Below, one piece after another: positions 12,864-20,207 of a DNA stretch of 39,427 nt. Within the stretch, counting starts at the first letter, position 1; every line of letters begins with the position of its first letter. Source of the DNA: Eubacteriales bacterium (lineage in GTDB: Bacteria; Bacillota; Clostridia; Oscillospirales; CAG-272); NCBI GenBank assembly GCA_045645605.1, contig JAZRJC010000086.1, positions 1 through 39,427 on the forward strand, read 5' to 3'. The notes under the pieces are model-generated. The model did not search any database and was not told where the DNA came from. It worked only from the letters and a program-made list of their open reading frames with translations. The position numbers were made by a program, and so were the translations under genes.

Positions 12864-12897
12864 AAATAACCCACCGTATAAACGGTGGGTTATTTTT
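12864..12897. terminator. Bidirectional intrinsic terminator between convergent genes
   Basis: AAATAACCCACCGT-ATAA-ACGGTGGGTTATTTTT. Confidence 0.85.
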
Positions 12898-12908
12898 CTT
12901 TTATATTC

Positions 12909-15527
12909 TCATATCGAATAATCTGAAAGATTGTTAATCTCGGAGATCTGCTCCTCGATCTCGCGCTTGACCGTAAGCACCTCGTCATAGAAGGCTTTGG
13001 CGGAAAGCCTTGTTGCTCCGTGTCCAAGAACTATTATCTGCTCAAGGCTATCGGACGTCGCAACCCGCACTCTGTATTTTTTGCCCATCTCGTACGTTAC
13101 GCGCTCAATATAAGCGTCGGCAGCCTCGGCCTCCTTTGTGTAAACCACGTGAATGCCGCCAACCTTTTCAACAGAGCCGCGTCCGCCTGCGACCTTATAC
13201 GCGTCAAAAACGAGTATCAGTCCGCATTGGCGGTAGCCTTGATAATTACAAAGCATATTGCAAAGCAGCTGTCTTGCAAGTCCCAGATTGTCCTTTGCAA
13301 CCGACGCAAGCTCCTCCCAGGCGAAAATTATATTGTATCCGTCAACGAGAAGATATTCGGGAAGGGTAACGGGATCTTTTCGGGGTCTTGTCTTTTCTTT
13401 TTTCTCACCACAAACAACCTTTTTGCCCTCGGGGGGATTTTTCCGCTTTCTTATAGGCCCATAGGTCTGCTCAAAAATTCCGATAAGCTCGTTATCAAGA
13501 ATTACCGCGTCCTCATAGGAAAGCCGTTTCTTTCTCGGCTCGGGTGCGCCTGCCGACGCGTCAGCACCCTCTCCCTCGTCATCGGTTTCACTCTTTATAC
13601 CACTCTCAAGATGCATATAGTGTGGCACGTCCTGCCATTTGACGATAAAGCCTGCCCCGTTTGCACAGAACACCGAGTCTGCCGTGTTTTCAACGTCCGT
13701 CTCGGGGTCGTAAGACGCCGCCTCACGAACCTCGTCCTCATTGTGACACCTCTTATAGCCGCCGAATTTGACGGTCAGCCGTCCCTTGCCCTTTGTATAG
13801 GAGCTGACCTCTGCCGCATATCTTCTCATCTCGCATACGGGAGCCTCCCCCGAGAGAATTGCACGCTCGCCGTCATTTTCAATCTCAAAATTACCGCCCA
13901 TCTGCGAAATATCCGTCATCGCACGGCCGATATTCTCGGACGGTATCTCAAGACGGAACGCATAATAGGGCTCAAGTATCGCACTCCTTGCCTGCATAAG
14001 CCCCTGACGGACTGCTCTGTAGGTCGCCTGTCGGAAATCTCCGCCCTCGGTGTGCTTTATATGTGCTCTGCCCGATATTATCGTAATCTTCATATCCGTT
14101 ATCGGCGAGCCTGTAAGAACTCCAAGATGCACCTTTTCGGAAAGGTGCGTCATAATAAGCCTTTGCCAATTTCGGTCAAGCGTATTTTCACTGCAGATGC
14201 TGTCAAAATAAAGTCCGCTGCCTACCTCTCCCGGCTCAAGCAGCAAATGCACCTCTGCATAGTGTCGAAGCGGCTCAAAATGTCCGACGCCTTCAACTGT
14301 ATCAAGTATCGTTTCACGGTAAACCACTCTTCCAGAGTCAAACTCCGCACAGATTCCGTACCTTTCGCTAAGCATTCGCCCGAGAATTTCAAGCTGAACC
14401 TCTCCCATAATGCTTACGTAAATTTCACGAAGCCTTCCGTCAAAGGAAACCTGAAGCTGCGGGTCCTCGTCCTCAAGAAGCTTGACCTTCGTATAGACCT
14501 CGCTTATGTTAACGTCGGGCGGGAGCTTCATTCTGTAGGTAAGGACGGGCTGAAGCGTTGGGGGAGTGCTGTCACTCTCACAGCCGAGTCCCTCTCCGGG
14601 ATAGCTTCTCTCAAGTCCCGTAAGCGTGCAGACCTCACCTGCCGAAACAGACTCGACCGCCTTATATTTGTTACCCGAATAGATTCGTATCTGGTCTATT
14701 TTTTCCTCTTCACCGTCGATATGGCGGATAATCTCCTTGGTTTTGAGCCCTCCGCCCGTGATTTTTATATGAGTAAGCCTTGTTCCCTGCGGGTCTCGGT
14801 TGATTTTATAGACTCTTGCACCAAATTTATTATGATATTTCCTCTCTCTGACAAGAGAGGCAATCTGACCGATAAATTTGTCGATTCCCGAAAGCTTCAG
14901 CGCCGAACCGAAGAATACGGGAAAGATTTTTCGCTCGCCGATAGCACGGACAAGCGCTCTCTGCCGATTCTCTCCGCAAAATTCTCCCGACATATAAGCC
15001 TCAAGAATCTCCTCGTCACGAAGAGCGGCCTCCTCTGTGACCGCGTTGCTATGTGGGTCGGAAAAGTCAATACACCCCTCGCCAAGCTCCTTCTTAAGCG
15101 TCCTCATAATATAATCCTTGTCGAAGCCGCCAAGGTCTGTTTTATTGACGAATATAAAGGTTGGGATTCTGTGATTTCTCAAAAGGCCGTGAAGCGTGAC
15201 GGTATGCGCCTCGGGGCCGTCTGTTCCGCTTATAACTAAAATTGCATAGTCAAGCACCGAGAGAGCCCTCTCTGTTTCTCCTGAAAAATCAACGTGACCG
15301 GGAGTATCGACAAGGGTAAATTCCACGTCACAGCAGATGAAGGACGCTTGCTTTGAGAAAATGGTGATTCCTCTGTCCTTTTCCATTATATCGGTGTCAA
15401 GAAAGGCGTCTCCGTGGTCAACCCGCCCATATCGTCTGACTGCTCCGCAGGTATATAAAAGTGCCTCCGAGAGCGTTGTCTTGCCTGCATCGACATGGGC
15501 TAAAATGCCAACTGTAATTTTCTTCAT
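12909..15527 (-). CDS. EF-G/TetM-like translational GTPase fused to a C-terminal Rae1/YacP-like NYN ribonuclease domain
   Basis: G1 AHVDAGKT, G2 RGITI, G3 DTPGH, G4 NKTD, EF-G-like domains II-V. The last ~150 aa carry LLVDGYN, VFDAY, ADAYIE and VATSD. Confidence 0.9.
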   Translation of the reverse strand: MKKITVGILAHVDAGKTTLSEALLYTCGAVRRYGRVDHGDAFLDTDIMEKDRGITIFSKQASFICCDVEFTLVDTPGHVDFSGETERALSVLDYAILVISGTDGPEAHTVTLHGLLRNHRIPTFIFVNKTDLGGFDKDYIMRTLKKELGEGCIDFSDPHSNAVTEEAALRDEEILEAYMSGEFCGENRQRALVRAIGERKIFPVFFGSALKLSGIDKFIGQIASLVRERKYHNKFGARVYKINRDPQGTRLTHIKITGGGLKTKEIIRHIDGEEEKIDQIRIYSGNKYKAVESVSAGEVCTLTGLERSYPGEGLGCESDSTPPTLQPVLTYRMKLPPDVNISEVYTKVKLLEDEDPQLQVSFDGRLREIYVSIMGEVQLEILGRMLSERYGICAEFDSGRVVYRETILDTVEGVGHFEPLRHYAEVHLLLEPGEVGSGLYFDSICSENTLDRNWQRLIMTHLSEKVHLGVLTGSPITDMKITIISGRAHIKHTEGGDFRQATYRAVRQGLMQARSAILEPYYAFRLEIPSENIGRAMTDISQMGGNFEIENDGERAILSGEAPVCEMRRYAAEVSSYTKGKGRLTVKFGGYKRCHNEDEVREAASYDPETDVENTADSVFCANGAGFIVKWQDVPHYMHLESGIKSETDDEGEGADASAGAPEPRKKRLSYEDAVILDNELIGIFEQTYGPIRKRKNPPEGKKVVCGEKKEKTRPRKDPVTLPEYLLVDGYNIIFAWEELASVAKDNLGLARQLLCNMLCNYQGYRQCGLILVFDAYKVAGGRGSVEKVGGIHVVYTKEAEAADAYIERVTYEMGKKYRVRVATSDSLEQIIVLGHGATRLSAKAFYDEVLTVKREIEEQISEINNLSDYSI

Positions 15528-15530
15528 AAA

Positions 15531-17489
15531 TTATTTTCCGTCACCGAAGAATATTTTCGCCATATCAGATGCCGAGAGCGTAAGGCTATCGCTCATAAAT
15601 TCGGCACCGCCCGAAAGCCAGGAAAGACGCGACATACCGTTCCAGGTCATAAAATAGCTGACTCTCTTGCCGCTATCAACCAAATCGTAAAGAGAATCGA
15701 GGATATCCTTGCCCGAATAAAGCTTTGCCTGCTCGTCCTTTGACGCGGCCAAAAGCTCACTCAAAACCGCATATTCGGAAATCGCGATGGGCTTACCTAT
15801 GGAAGCCAGCTCGCCTATCTCCTTGCCCGAGGACAAGAGGGCCTTTTTGTTTTGCGCATCAATATCCACGCCGAGAATATCAACGTATTCGTCGCCGGGA
15901 TATGCGTAAAGAGGCGAAAGCGCCGCATCTGACAAGGCGCTATATACCCAGACCATATCAGAAACACCGCGAGAGGCAAAAAATTCGTAAGTATAAACCC
16001 AAAGCTCACGAAGAAGCCCGGCGTCAATAATATCCTCTCCCTGACGCGCGCTGAACCAGAAGCCCTCGCCGTTCATTTCGTGATAAGGACGGTACAGAAC
16101 GGGAATCCCGTTATCAGAAAGTGCTTTCAAAAATTCAGCCTCAAGCGTGAGAGACGCAACAAAATTATCGTGTGCAAAATTGCCCTCTGTCAGAATCTTC
16201 CGCATTCCGTCATCGCCGCCAATATATCCTCGGCAACGACCCTCCTCCGTCCAATTCTCTGTCGGATTCTCGGAATGTGAGCAGATAGCTATAATTCCGC
16301 CCGTTGCCGCATAGTCGTAAAGCTCGCAGATAGCCTGACTCCTCTCGGCTCCGCCAAGACGCGAAAGATAAAGCCCGTATTCGCCCAAATCAACGCCGAG
16401 CATCGCAGGATATTCGCCCGTTGCCCTCTTGAATTCCTCAAGAGCGTATTTCGGCATCGCCTGTGAGCCGCCAAGCTGCTCGCCTATAATTATTTTGTCT
16501 TTATCCTCATAAACGTCGGTAATAGCCTCGCGAAGCTGCTCCCTCGTGTATATACGAGCACCCTCCACCGAAAGATCAACGCAATCGGCAAATCTTATAT
16601 CGTACGAGCCCCCCGACGGCTTCATTTTTTTGAAAAAGTCGCCCAAAAAATACTCAAGGGCCGTATCAAAGGTTTTATAGCTTCCGTAAACTGTCAGATT
16701 TCCCTTCGCGTCAAGCCTTGTGCCGTAGTGGTTTACCAGAGTATGCGAATTGTCGAAAATAATATATTTTCCGGTATCGCCAAGCTCCTCGGCAATACCG
16801 AGGCTCGTTCCGATTACCTTTTCAAGAATTTCGTCGCTTATACATCCGAGGTCAATCTCCTCGTCGGTCGAATAGAGCTTATATTTTGAAATGTCAACTC
16901 CCGAGATTGAAAGGCTCTCAAAAAGATGCTCGCGAATAAAGAGATATCCGTCACCCTTTGGATATTTAGCGACTGCATTCAGGGCGTCAAGGAAGTTTTC
17001 GGTATAAAATTCAACTGCCGCCGCCGTTGCTCGCTCACTGCCCCCGACGATAACTAACTTCTTGCCAACCATTTTGATTATGAAGTCCTCAACGCCAAGC
17101 CCCTTGGAGCAATCAATACTTTCCTCGCGTTCGCTGACACCAACGAGAATTTCCTTATCCTGTATCTCTCGTCCCGTCTCGCCCTGCCAATCGGTTCCGA
17201 GAGCAAGATCTATGCCGGTTGCTTTTTTGATAGCATCTCGCAGAGAGGTGGCCGTCTGCTTTTCCTCCTTCGTTCCCGTGTCGCTTCTGATAATGCAGTA
17301 TTCCGATAGGTTTTCGAGATATTCAAGCTCAACAGCCCCTCGAGAGTCCTCAAGTACCCCTCCGTCATTCTCTCCCGAAAAATCAAATCTGTTATTGTTC
17401 TGCTTCAGATTTGAGCAGGATATGACAGAAAAGGAAAGCAGGAGAATTATTCCCGCCGCAAAAAGTCTATTTATAATTTTATTACTCAT
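15531..17489 (-). CDS. Lipoprotein with a C-terminal glycoside hydrolase family 26 (beta-mannanase-like) domain
   Basis: Lipobox VISC. GH26 motifs RPYHEMNG..FWF, WVYS, YPGDEYVDILGVD, AISEY. ATG at 17489 after AGGAAAGG. Confidence 0.82.
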   Translation of the reverse strand: MSNKIINRLFAAGIILLLSFSVISCSNLKQNNNRFDFSGENDGGVLEDSRGAVELEYLENLSEYCIIRSDTGTKEEKQTATSLRDAIKKATGIDLALGTDWQGETGREIQDKEILVGVSEREESIDCSKGLGVEDFIIKMVGKKLVIVGGSERATAAAVEFYTENFLDALNAVAKYPKGDGYLFIREHLFESLSISGVDISKYKLYSTDEEIDLGCISDEILEKVIGTSLGIAEELGDTGKYIIFDNSHTLVNHYGTRLDAKGNLTVYGSYKTFDTALEYFLGDFFKKMKPSGGSYDIRFADCVDLSVEGARIYTREQLREAITDVYEDKDKIIIGEQLGGSQAMPKYALEEFKRATGEYPAMLGVDLGEYGLYLSRLGGAERSQAICELYDYAATGGIIAICSHSENPTENWTEEGRCRGYIGGDDGMRKILTEGNFAHDNFVASLTLEAEFLKALSDNGIPVLYRPYHEMNGEGFWFSARQGEDIIDAGLLRELWVYTYEFFASRGVSDMVWVYSALSDAALSPLYAYPGDEYVDILGVDIDAQNKKALLSSGKEIGELASIGKPIAISEYAVLSELLAASKDEQAKLYSGKDILDSLYDLVDSGKRVSYFMTWNGMSRLSWLSGGAEFMSDSLTLSASDMAKIFFGDGK

Positions 17490-17521
17490 TAATATAAAAT
17501 CCTTTCCTCGTTTCTGCCTAT

Positions 17522-17550
17522 ATGGTATCATAAAAAAGACTCGATGTCAA
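17522..17550 (-). promoter_or_regulatory. sigma-A promoter for the GH26-GTPase operon
   Basis: Minus strand TTGACA-N17-TACCAT with extended TG. Confidence 0.6.
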
Positions 17551-17844: not shown

Positions 17845-17873
17845 ATTATATCGTCTTTTCTTCCTTTTGTCAA
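17845..17873 (-). promoter_or_regulatory. Perfect sigma-A promoter for the 38-aa gene
   Basis: Minus strand TTGACA-AAAGGAAGAAAAGACGA(17)-TATAAT. Confidence 0.85.
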
Positions 17874-17942: not shown

Positions 17943-20207
17943 TTATTCTGCCGCTCTGCCGTTGGCTTTTCCCTCGACAACACTCATCTCAATTCTTCTG
18001 GTCGGTATATCGGACGCCTCTATTTTGACACGGACAGCCTGCCCCAGTCGGTAGCTCCTTCTTCCCGACGTAAGAGTATAGCTTTTTTCATCAAAGCTAA
18101 ATCTGCCGCCGAGTGCTTCAAGCGGAACAAGACCCTCAACCGTGTTCGGAAGGCTTACGAATATGCCAAAGGCGGTAACAGAGCTGACGACGCCGTCATA
18201 TTCCTCCCCATCCTTGTCCGACATATAGACCACCTTATACAGATCGTCGATCTCACGCTCCGCATACAGCGCGCGAAGCTCGTTTTCGCTTGATTTTACG
18301 GCACTCTCCTCGGCAAATTTTTCAAAATGCTCAAGCGTCGAGCCGTCAAGCTCTCCTCGGAGCACCTTTTTTACAATTCTGTGAACCGAAAGGTCGGGAT
18401 AGCGCCGGATAGGAGAGGTGAAATGGCAGTAAAGATCAATAGCAAGACCGAAATGAGGCTTTGGGGCAGCCGAATATTTCGCCTTACTCATCGAACGAAG
18501 CATAACGGCCGAAAGAACTGCCGACAGCTCCTTTTCTCTCGCCTCCGAGAGTACTGCAGAGAAGGCAGATGGATAGAGTCGGGTCGCTCGGAGTGGACGA
18601 ATATCAAGACCGAGGTTTTGCGCAAACTCAGTGAAGGAATGAAGCTTATCTGGAGAGGGTGGCTCGTGTACGCGGTAAACGCAGGGAAGCGACATTTGCG
18701 TAAGCCAGGTTGCAACAGCCTCGTTTGCACAAAGCATAAACTGCTCGATAAGTCTCTCTGCGTCGCCTCTCTCGCGCGGAATAATATCTATAGGATAGCC
18801 GTTTTTGTCAACGAGAATCTTTGCCTCCTCTGTATCAAGCTCAACAGCTCCTCTTGCCGCGGCTCTTTTCGCAAGAATTAAGTATAGCTCTTTCATTATG
18901 CGAAGGCTTGGCAGGGCTTTTTCGTATTTTTTGCCGATCTCCTCATCTGCCTCGCCCGACAAAATCTTGTTTACCTCACTGTAATAGCCGTGAACGCAGG
19001 AGGAAATTACACTCTCGCAAAGGTCAACGTCAAGAATCGCGCCCTTGCCGTCAAGCGAGATAAACGCCGAGAGGGCATAGCAGTCCTTGCCCGAATCAAG
19101 AGAGCAAGCCCCGTTTGAGAGGGCGCGCGGCAGCATTGGAACGACCTTATCGGTAAAATAAACGCTCGTTCCTCTTGCCATAGCTTCCTTATCGATGGCC
19201 GATTTTTCCCTTACGTACTCGGAAACGTCCGCAATATGAACGCCTAAAATATAGCCGTCATCGGTTTTCTCAATAGAAATTGCGTCGTCAAGGTCCTTTG
19301 CGTCCTCTCCGTCAATCGTGAAAATTATCTTGTCACGAAGGTCTCGGCGGCCGTCTGTCGAAATCTCTCGGCGTGCTTCGATTCCAGCCTCACGCTGGGC
19401 GTCCTCGGGGAATTCGGGATTGATGTTATATTCAGCAAGAATTGCGGCGTAATTTGCCTCCCTCGTTCCGCTGTCCCCAAAATTTGATATAATTTCACCT
19501 ACCATATCCGAATTGCGGGACGGATATTTTACGATCTCAACCTCAACTTTATCGCCGTCCTTCAGGGCGGAATTTCCGTGCGTGGGAATATAAACGGTAT
19601 ATGGGATTTTGCCTGAATCGGGCGCGAGGGTAACAACACGGCGTCTTTTTCTTCCGTGAAACGAGATATCAATATTGAGAACACCGATTATTTTCTTGTT
19701 TTTCTCGGCTCTCTCAACTATTCTTACAATCTCTCCGTCGCTACCTTCAGGATGTCTTTTTTCTTTTGCAACAGGAATGAGCCGCCCGCCCCTTCCTCGA
19801 CGGAGCTTGCTTTTATCAAAATGCTCGTGGCTCTTCCTTTTATCGTAGGGCTCACTTCTTCTGACGAGAACTCTGTCGCCGTCGATGGCATACATCGTTT
19901 TGTCGGACGAGATAAAAATGTCGTCGCCGCCCCTTGCTTCAGCGCCCTCGGGAGTTACAAAGCCGTAGCTTTTGCTTGTGCCTCTGTATGTTCCCATAAC
20001 AAGTCCTGACGCCTCGGGGGTCATTATTTTGCCGCGTTTTGTGCAAACGCAAAGGCCATCGCGCTCCATTTGGGCAAGAGAGTCATAAAAGTCGTCAAGC
20101 TCTGATGCCTCGATGCCCAAAGCCACTGATAAGTCCTCTGCCTTTTGAGGAATATATCCCTCGGATTTTATTTCTTCTTCGATCAGATGTCTATATTTTT
20201 CCTTCAT
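17943..20207 (-). CDS. rnr: Ribonuclease R
   Basis: Cold-shock domains (GFVTP, DIFI), RNB motifs TIDGEDAKDLDDA, HIADVS, RGTSVY, HFTSPIRRYPDL, and a C-terminal S1 domain. Confidence 0.95.
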   Translation of the reverse strand: MKEKYRHLIEEEIKSEGYIPQKAEDLSVALGIEASELDDFYDSLAQMERDGLCVCTKRGKIMTPEASGLVMGTYRGTSKSYGFVTPEGAEARGGDDIFISSDKTMYAIDGDRVLVRRSEPYDKRKSHEHFDKSKLRRGRGGRLIPVAKEKRHPEGSDGEIVRIVERAEKNKKIIGVLNIDISFHGRKRRRVVTLAPDSGKIPYTVYIPTHGNSALKDGDKVEVEIVKYPSRNSDMVGEIISNFGDSGTREANYAAILAEYNINPEFPEDAQREAGIEARREISTDGRRDLRDKIIFTIDGEDAKDLDDAISIEKTDDGYILGVHIADVSEYVREKSAIDKEAMARGTSVYFTDKVVPMLPRALSNGACSLDSGKDCYALSAFISLDGKGAILDVDLCESVISSCVHGYYSEVNKILSGEADEEIGKKYEKALPSLRIMKELYLILAKRAAARGAVELDTEEAKILVDKNGYPIDIIPRERGDAERLIEQFMLCANEAVATWLTQMSLPCVYRVHEPPSPDKLHSFTEFAQNLGLDIRPLRATRLYPSAFSAVLSEAREKELSAVLSAVMLRSMSKAKYSAAPKPHFGLAIDLYCHFTSPIRRYPDLSVHRIVKKVLRGELDGSTLEHFEKFAEESAVKSSENELRALYAEREIDDLYKVVYMSDKDGEEYDGVVSSVTAFGIFVSLPNTVEGLVPLEALGGRFSFDEKSYTLTSGRRSYRLGQAVRVKIEASDIPTRRIEMSVVEGKANGRAAE

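Follow-up and report, generated by a model that had tools for sequence, protein, structure and literature searches.

A stretch of DNA of 39,427 nucleotides from a Eubacteriales bacterium (Clostridia; Oscillospirales; CAG-272; GenBank assembly GCA_045645605.1, contig JAZRJC010000086.1), here called the window, contains a gene that encodes a translational GTPase of the Tet/EF-G type and a nuclease of the Rae1 (YacP) type as one polypeptide. The gene lies at 12909..15527 on the reverse strand and consists of 872 codons plus stop; the open reading frame (ORF) is single, uninterrupted and intact, exactly as a first-pass annotation of the same DNA had given it. From the N-terminus, the 872-amino-acid protein comprises (all coordinates on the reverse strand): a G domain (residues 1–230; 14838..15527), with the motifs G1 (AHVDAGKT, 10–17), G2 (T55), G3 (DTPGH, 74–78, with the catalytic His78) and G4 (NKTD, 128–131); domains II and III (residues 231–398; 14334..14837); domain IV (residues 399–515; 13983..14333), with two clade-specific loops, GHFEPLRHYAEV (414–426) and GRAHxKHTEGGDFR (486–499); domain V (residues 516–597; 13737..13982); a C-terminal extension of the GTPase (residues 598–645; 13593..13736), folded as helix, beta-hairpin and helix; a linker (residues 646–722; 13362..13592), acidic in its first half and basic in its second; and the Rae1/YacP NYN nuclease domain (residues 723–872; 12912..13361). 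Within the linker lies an amphipathic helix (residues 671–690; 13458..13517) with the motif E-[LIV]-x-x-I-F-x-[RK]-T-[YF]-G.

This architecture was assigned by several methods. In Pfam, the protein matches GTP_EFTU (residues 4–225, E 4.5e-45), EF-G_D2 (235–306), EFG_III (343–396), EFG_IV (399–513), EFG_C (517–597) and NYN_YacP (726–866). With G1–G4 and domains II–V in order, the body belongs to the translational GTPase superfamily and is EF-G/EF2-like. The NYN_YacP match (PF05991) scores 157 bits against a gathering cut-off of 24.6 (E 4.1e-46), and the same part of the protein aligns with the crystal-structure sequence of Bacillus subtilis YacP/Rae1 (PDB 5mq8/5mq9, E 1.9e-22). The features that define the family, in the passage on it in Matelska et al. 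[2017, NAR, PMC5499597], are GYN after the first Asp and four conserved Asp. The acidic motifs recognized in the first-pass annotation are all present, namely VDGYN (D729), VFDAY (D775), ADAYIE (D804) and TSD (D826); its span for the nuclease (about 12909–13360) corresponds to residues 723–872, and the domain IV loop that it singled out, AHIKHTEGGDFRQA, occupies residues 488–501, with the YSPVSTP-type Tet loop absent, as it had said. An AlphaFold2 model built from 112 relatives has a mean predicted local distance difference test (pLDDT) score of 92.4 and a predicted template modelling (pTM) score of 0.76; in Foldseek, which also supports domains II and III, it matches ribosome-bound EF-G (E 1.3e-54) and TetM (E 1.7e-45). 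Disorder in the model is limited to residues 653–669 and 695–713 of the linker, with a helix predicted at 671–689 between them. The extension has a pLDDT of 95–97 in the full model; folded alone, it gave a weak model (mean pLDDT 65, pTM 0.40), and a search of the ESM Atlas with residues 586–700 returned only fragments of the same family, all below 0.9.

Conservation was followed in 112 aligned relatives of 39–90% identity and in 138 aligned fusions. In all 112 relatives, D13, G15, K16, T55, D74–H78, K129, D131 and the four NYN Asp are invariant; G1, G2, G3 (with His78) and G4, which the first-pass annotation had described as intact, are invariant or nearly so in these relatives and among the 138 fusions. 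The invariant NYN positions of the aligned fusions are the four Asp, Tyr731, Asn732 and Thr797. By this pattern, the catalytic centres of the GTPase and of the nuclease are both under selection. Domain IV is the best conserved domain (mean column conservation 0.68 versus 0.46–0.57 elsewhere in the 138 fusions), with 22 columns at or above 95%. The 48-amino-acid extension, which is confined to the fusion clade and an unfused sister clade, is also highly conserved and carries Y606, D611, S618, F620, C621, G624, W631 and H639. C594, C621 and H639 are each kept in 120–127 of the 138 sequences and, purely as a hypothesis, could form a zinc (metal) site together with H595 or H623. The linker, about 77 residues here (family median from H639 to D729 90, range 43–147), is poorly conserved (mean 0.23), except for its amphipathic helix, which is present in 138/138 fusions; positions 681, 684 and 685 are hydrophobic in 98–99% of them, without gaps. 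In its basic half, the linker carries a median net charge of +5.

The fusion is real and common. A query spanning the junction (residues 560–872) found at least 7993 protein clusters at 90% identity; among the matches listed, EF-G domains accompany NYN_YacP in 120/120; 117 of these proteins have 853–1002 amino acids, and 3 are fragments. The best 150 cluster representatives at 50% identity are 40–58% identical to the query, and 137 of these have 820–1000 amino acids and align from end to end. When species-representative genomes were scanned for two clade-specific peptides, at least 600 stretches were found, all of which were confirmed; of the best 80 species-level loci, 77 are fused, 2 run off the contig and 1 is unfused. 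An artefact of assembly is therefore rejected by the number of junction clusters and by these loci. Among the carriers are Agathobacter rectalis, Lachnospiraceae, Oscillospiraceae, Ruminococcus, Blautia, Dorea, Faecalibacterium, Intestinimonas butyriciproducens, Mediterraneibacter glycyrrhizinilyticus, [Clostridium] polysaccharolyticum and Desulfosporosinus acididurans. In the plasmid collection, the full fusion occurs in two records only; each is a large, non-mobilizable replicon that also carries housekeeping genes. Gut-metagenome runs of three studies contain parts of this DNA stretch, and in none of the runs was half of its sampled words present.

A few relatives are out of the ordinary. 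One (L057, G350:C1), from a genome assembled completely as one contig, is interrupted by a single in-frame stop within an insert in domain II, and another (L058, G169:C2) has a frameshift near residue 565; these could be pseudogenes, sequencing errors or cases of recoding. Three further copies come from records labelled Prevotella sp. (L086 and L147, both fused) and from a metagenome-assembled genome (MAG) labelled Bifidobacterium tibiigranuli (L137, unfused); they are 64–66% identical to the query from domain IV to the extension, which points to wrong binning of contigs or to transfer from Clostridia to other groups.

The architecture has been catalogued in print, in 2015 and 2017, and is functionally uncharacterized. 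Atkinson 2015 [BMC Genomics, PMC4342817], in the passage on these proteins, records ten species of Clostridiales in which Tet proteins carry a YacP-like NYN domain, and the corresponding passage of Matelska et al. [2017] states that a TetM–NYN_YacP fusion of unclear role exists in some Clostridia. The present gene is a member of this catalogued family, having an N-terminal Tet-like GTPase and a C-terminal NYN_YacP domain in one ORF and coming from the same taxonomic group. In those passages the GTPase is treated as a Tet protein, and replacement of Rae1, a separate clade, an unfused sister and a linker helix are not reported. The first-pass annotation had expected the fusion to be in databases with no functional study and to be auto-annotated as tetracycline resistance: two in silico surveys mention it, and the database names bear out the expected annotation.

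These names lead to the question of what kind of GTPase this is. Atkinson 2015 suggested, in the passage concerned, a resistance mechanism involving RNase activity, and the protein could accordingly be taken for a factor that protects the ribosome against tetracycline or another A-site antibiotic, with the nuclease as an accessory. The best PDB sequence matches of the body are indeed TetO (E 6e-76) and TetM (E 1e-72), followed by EF-G. Like Tet(M), Tet(O) and Tet(W), it has a five-domain body without the large G′ insert and with intact GTPase motifs; the fusion differs in adding the extension, the linker and the nuclease, in its domain IV loops I and III, and in being chromosomal and widespread in Clostridia rather than located on mobile elements. 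In quick IQ-TREE trees of 60–61 rows with EF-G as outgroup (a limited sample, leaving out the partial L004–L012 and the truncated L020), a clade of the true Tet proteins has support 100; the fusions and their unfused sister form a separate clade, also with support 100, outside and sister to the Tet clade. The bipartition of the fusions plus five short representatives has support 98, and that of the unfused set 97–98. Over the body, fusions are 48–57% identical to the query, unfused proteins 43–47%, Tet proteins 29–32% and EF-G 24–27%.

The profile scores point in the same direction. With tet_protect (NCBIfam NF012153), the protein scores 416 bits against a curated cut-off of 775; a search of 150 Clostridia genomes gave nine matches above the cut-off, from eight of the genomes, at 812–1001 bits, and two at about 560 bits, whereas the fusions reach 447 bits at most, close to the 380–412 of EF-G. 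Nor is the protein an EF-G, as it scores 257 bits with TIGR00484 (cut-off 659) and lacks the motifs SGGxGQ(Y/F)GH and SYH(E/D)VDSS. Loop I of domain IV reads EPLRHYAEV in the fusion clade, VPPNPFWAS in Tet proteins and SGGKGQYGH in EF-G; loop III reads GRAHxKHTEGGDFR, GLYYSPVSTPADFR and GSYHEVDSSEMAFK, respectively. In the query, loop III is GRAHIKHTEGGDFR, at the place where four true Tet proteins have GLYYSPVSTP(A/S)DFR. Tet-type factors bind with domain IV in the A site, and Pro509 of TetM, which belongs to loop III, sits inside the tetracycline site [passages in PMC8161019]; the loop that holds Pro509 in TetM reads GRAHIKHTEGG here. Two genomes, G147 and G102, carry a true Tet gene as well as the fusion, and 20 other loci of the family are chromosomal in context and free of genes of conjugative elements. 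By the sequence tests run, the protein is no tetracycline-resistance protein, and protection of the ribosome, for all that true Tet proteins are the sister clade, is quite improbable as its function, though it might protect against some other natural A-site drug. By the same tests, the GTPase forms a lineage of its own next to the Tet proteins; this lineage, which is new here, has its own domain IV loops and extension.

The unfused sister GTPase, likewise new here, has about 655 amino acids and was found in genomes G076, G092, G096, G124, G195, G209 and G300. It shares the domain IV loops and the extension and stops just past ...YMH, so that it has no linker and no nuclease. Unfused homologues, including a form from Ligilactobacillus, are 43–50% identical to the body of the query. 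Together with stand-alone Rae1, the unfused GTPase occurs only in G096, G209 and G300, where the two genes are not adjacent. If the fusion were a Rosetta-stone link between two proteins that elsewhere work side by side, the unfused GTPase should be enriched in genomes with stand-alone Rae1; it is not, and this explanation was rejected.

Stand-alone Rae1 of B. subtilis cuts mRNA upstream of stalled ribosomes [in part of PMC12407103], and Rae1-dependent tagging by transfer-messenger RNA (tmRNA) after ribosome collisions is described in part of a 2026 preprint [PMC13622287]. To relate the fusion to this protein, 300 Clostridia genomes at least 90% complete were taken as a class-level sample, and the first 149 were tabulated in full, with a clade-specific profile from domain IV to the extension as the search model for the GTPase. 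A NYN_YacP match is present in 198 of the 300 genomes. By hand count, the 150 matches listed out of 201 divide into 94 in frames of at least 618 amino acids, 54 in frames of 168–216 amino acids and 2 others. Among the 149 genomes, 50 have the fusion (all NYN-positive), 1 a frameshifted fusion, 42 stand-alone Rae1 only, 2 the unfused GTPase and stand-alone Rae1, 7 the unfused GTPase only and 47 neither. Thus, 95 genomes bear Rae1, as a fusion in 51 (including the frameshifted copy), as a stand-alone protein in 44 and as both in 0; related genomes are not independent, and no significance is claimed for these counts. Among the matches listed for the 300-genome sample, co-occurrence of the fused and the stand-alone form was likewise not found: in three genomes that appeared to have both, the second matches were only sub-threshold (21 bits) or at a contig end. 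A single genus (for example g92 and g175) may hold species of both states.

In the sampled Clostridia, which include major gut genera, most Rae1-bearing genomes therefore have the fused form, which excludes the other. The first-pass annotation had left it to be seen whether a stand-alone rae1 gene accompanies the fusion in its own genome; no other NYN_YacP was found in this MAG, which is 76% complete. In 61 genomes of its own family, NYN_YacP occurs in 10, always in frames of 747–925 amino acids. Since the two forms are never found together, the fusion, as far as gene content can tell, stands in for Rae1 in the genomes that carry it and, because it comes with no stand-alone Rae1, is probably its functional equivalent. 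The Rae1 survey in the preprint, as its section on the search describes it, used hmmsearch and no size filter, and so cannot separate fused from stand-alone Rae1.

This exclusion bears on the substrate. A GTPase at the factor-binding site would place a tethered nuclease near rRNA and tRNA as much as near mRNA, and the basic stretch of the linker could serve to bind any kind of RNA. The nuclease might thus cut rRNA or tRNA and inactivate or dismantle defective or idle ribosomes, in turnover, dormancy or an abortive response; the patchy distribution of the gene would suit an accessory stress function of this kind, and defence against phage mRNA is raised as a possible role of Rae1 in part of the preprint [PMC13622287]. 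However, the strict exclusion between the two forms speaks for a shared substrate, which for Rae1 of B. subtilis is mRNA. Furthermore, 0/5027 defence-system models matched, and no antitoxin, immunity gene or conserved neighbour was found in 20 loci. Cutting of rRNA or tRNA is, on balance, unlikely.

Compared with Rae1 of B. subtilis, the fused nuclease belongs to the same NYN_YacP family and has the GYN motif and the four catalytic Asp; unlike stand-alone Rae1, it is covalently tied to a 650-amino-acid translational GTPase, is encoded outside the cysS-mrnC-rlmB-yacP operon and has a shorter tail. In all 20 stand-alone proteins sampled, 63–68 amino acids follow the last NYN Asp, whereas the tail is shorter than 55 in 82 of 138 fusions and has 46 (after D826) here, short of the full length by a criterion that is empirical rather than published. 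Judging from these lengths, the nuclease often lost its tail after fusion, a tendency that is new here; this shortening fits the targeting of the nuclease having passed to the GTPase. In a tree of NYN domains (41 rows), the fused domains and one stand-alone copy, that of genome G300, are separated from 19 other stand-alone copies with an approximate likelihood-ratio (SH-aLRT) support of 88. The G300 copy lies in a classical cysS-mrnC-rlmB-yacP operon, and a separate contig of the same genome encodes an unfused sister-clade GTPase that terminates just after the extension. With modest support, G300 looks like the state before fusion.

A role in the making of ribosomes is another candidate: the GTPase would test-drive a near-finished ribosome, and the NYN domain would trim a pre-rRNA end. 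The eukaryotic GTPase eIF5B/Fun12 and the PIN nuclease Nob1 work as such a test-drive and trimming pair. YacP was first proposed for maturation of rRNA or tRNA because of its place in cysS-mrnC-rlmB-yacP [in a passage of Matelska et al., PMC5499597], where the stand-alone copy of G300 also lies, and the 3′ end of 16S rRNA would be close to the mRNA exit, the reputed site of cutting by Rae1. Experiments with Rae1, however, show cleavage of mRNA that depends on translation and stalling, not processing of rRNA; the fused gene lies outside the operon and has no conserved rRNA-processing neighbours in 20 loci; and most of the family's genomes yielded no copy of the gene, which would be odd for a step of maturation. 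We regard a maturation factor as hardly probable.

The surroundings of the gene in the window are those of an ordinary chromosome, with MnmG, YmdB, RNase R, a MiaB-like enzyme, a PrmC-like methylase and tRNA genes. A gene for a glycoside hydrolase of family GH26 (15531..17531, reverse strand) lies upstream and ends with its stop 3 nucleotides before the ATG of the fusion, so that the two genes probably form one transcript. In a consensus scan only, a promoter-like TTGACA-17-TATAAT was seen upstream of the GH26 gene (17845..17873, reverse strand) and a terminator-like 14-bp hairpin just past the stop of the fusion (12864..12895). GH26-domain genes lie one or two genes from the fusion in 2 of 20 other loci (L040 and L051), by chance or as residual synteny. 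Two genes upstream of the fusion is the RNase R gene (17943–20207, reverse strand; RNB, CSD2 and S1 domains); this is suggestive for RNA decay, yet RNase R is found near the fusion in 0 of 20 other loci. Translation-related neighbours in those loci are scattered and mostly occur once each (RtcB, pseudouridine synthases, a release factor, trigger factor, a YbaK-like protein). No conjugative or mobile-element context and no resistance context was seen in any of the 20. SmpB is encoded in this genome, as is a MutS2-like Smr protein.

How might a Rae1 that is tied to a GTPase work? The reading that we favour, by a modest measure, is that the fusion is a GTP-gated, ribosome-docked Rae1, which would cut mRNA on stalled or collided ribosomes for rescue by tmRNA. 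The GTP form of the Tet/EF-G-like body would bind the factor-binding site of a stopped 70S ribosome, where the conserved tip of domain IV would read the state of the decoding centre. The NYN domain, held on a tether of about 77–90 residues with a conserved docking helix (the putative role of the linker helix) and a basic stretch, would reach and cut mRNA that lies at the stalled ribosome's edge or between two that have collided. Hydrolysis of GTP would then free the factor, the GTPase body thus setting both the address on the ribosome and a GTP-controlled dwell time, and the truncated mRNA would feed rescue by tmRNA–SmpB, as for stand-alone Rae1 in B. subtilis. This reading is supported by the selection on both catalytic centres; by the replacement of stand-alone Rae1, together with the loss of the nuclease tail in many fusions; by what stand-alone Rae1 itself does in cutting mRNA and feeding tmRNA tagging; by domain IV, which reaches the decoding centre in EF-G and TetM, being the best conserved domain, with loops unlike those of both; by the linker being variable and predicted to be disordered, save for the one helix in every fusion; and by SmpB being encoded in a genome where the gene is chromosomal, among housekeeping neighbours. 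The first-pass annotation went further in two respects. It had domain IV guide cleavage in the A site, which rests on a 2017 model of Rae1 that the Rae1 authors have since replaced, and it spoke of a one-protein quality-control system, which is overstated, as rescue would still need tmRNA–SmpB.

Several observations weigh against the fusion as a tethered, mRNA-cutting Rae1. The tether must bridge the distance from a body with domain IV bound in the A site to the site where the mRNA is cut. In the 149-genome set, the unfused GTPase is not associated with stand-alone Rae1 (2/9 versus 42/89, Fisher p 0.18, related genomes not being independent), and 7 of the 9 genomes with it are without any Rae1; since it mostly lives without Rae1, the GTPase body must serve some function by itself. 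Its fused gene is patchy and dispensable: the fusion was found in 10 of the 61 own-family genomes, and 49 have neither form. No conserved neighbour links the fusion to rescue (112 neighbouring proteins in 20 loci, of different families), and a search of the 76%-complete MAG gave no tmRNA above threshold. The literature searched yielded no experimental study of any member.

A bolder and clearly less probable idea, offered tentatively, is that the whole clade, fused or not, might be an unrecognized bacterial rescue factor, with invariant domain IV loops of its own that read the decoding centre of stopped ribosomes. The fused form would then license a tethered Rae1 to cut only when GTP is bound, and the mobile Tet proteins would have sprung from this housekeeping lineage rather than given rise to it.

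Under this bolder idea, the fused protein would be a single-chain bacterial counterpart of no-go decay, gated by GTP. In eukaryotes, Hbs1–Dom34 is the GTPase partner system acting on stalled ribosomes. The fusion would share with SmrB of Escherichia coli, and with Cue2 and NONU-1, which are accompanied by Hbs1–Dom34, the cutting of mRNA at stalled or collided ribosomes before rescue; the likeness would be a functional analogy only, as the folds are unrelated to that of the fusion and nuclease and GTPase are separate proteins in those systems. SmrB and Cue2 are named as analogues in part of the preprint [PMC13622287], which also states that a structure of ribosome-bound Rae1 is lacking because binding is transient. 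Rae1 has just been placed centrally in the collision-rescue pathway of Gram-positive bacteria, and the fusion could probably be locked on the ribosome by a GTP analogue or a GTPase mutant; with such a lockable tether, how Rae1 finds its ribosome becomes directly approachable. In addition, the annotation of fusions as tetracycline resistance probably inflates resistome counts in gut metagenomes.

Some minor observations concern relatives of the GTPase. Megaplasmids of Ligilactobacillus salivarius encode an unfused homologue of 644 amino acids, 50% identical over residues 1–641, and 44 Ligilactobacillus plasmid records match; in one of them (L161; plasmid NZ_CP117984.1, 123205–133100), this homologue adjoins, in divergent orientation, rpsN (ribosomal protein S14) and a gene for a "putative metal homeostasis protein", a curious neighbour given the Cys/His pattern of the extension. 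The megaplasmid-bearing L. salivarius P1CEA3 has a minimum inhibitory concentration of tetracycline of 1 μg/mL [in part of PMC10778751]; its carriage of the homologue is unconfirmed, so the value is no evidence either way. In the genome of the query, contig C21 (about 26.6–30.0 kb, L002) encodes an EF-G-like paralogue of 695 amino acids with the P-loop GHGGTGKT, a G3 of DTPGY and, therefore, no catalytic His. It is the sole other gene with an EF-G domain IV found in the 76%-complete assembly, in which no canonical fusA was seen. Finally, a 739-amino-acid open frame (window positions 13020–15239, forward strand) lies antisense to most of the fusion gene and is probably a codon-bias shadow of the real gene.

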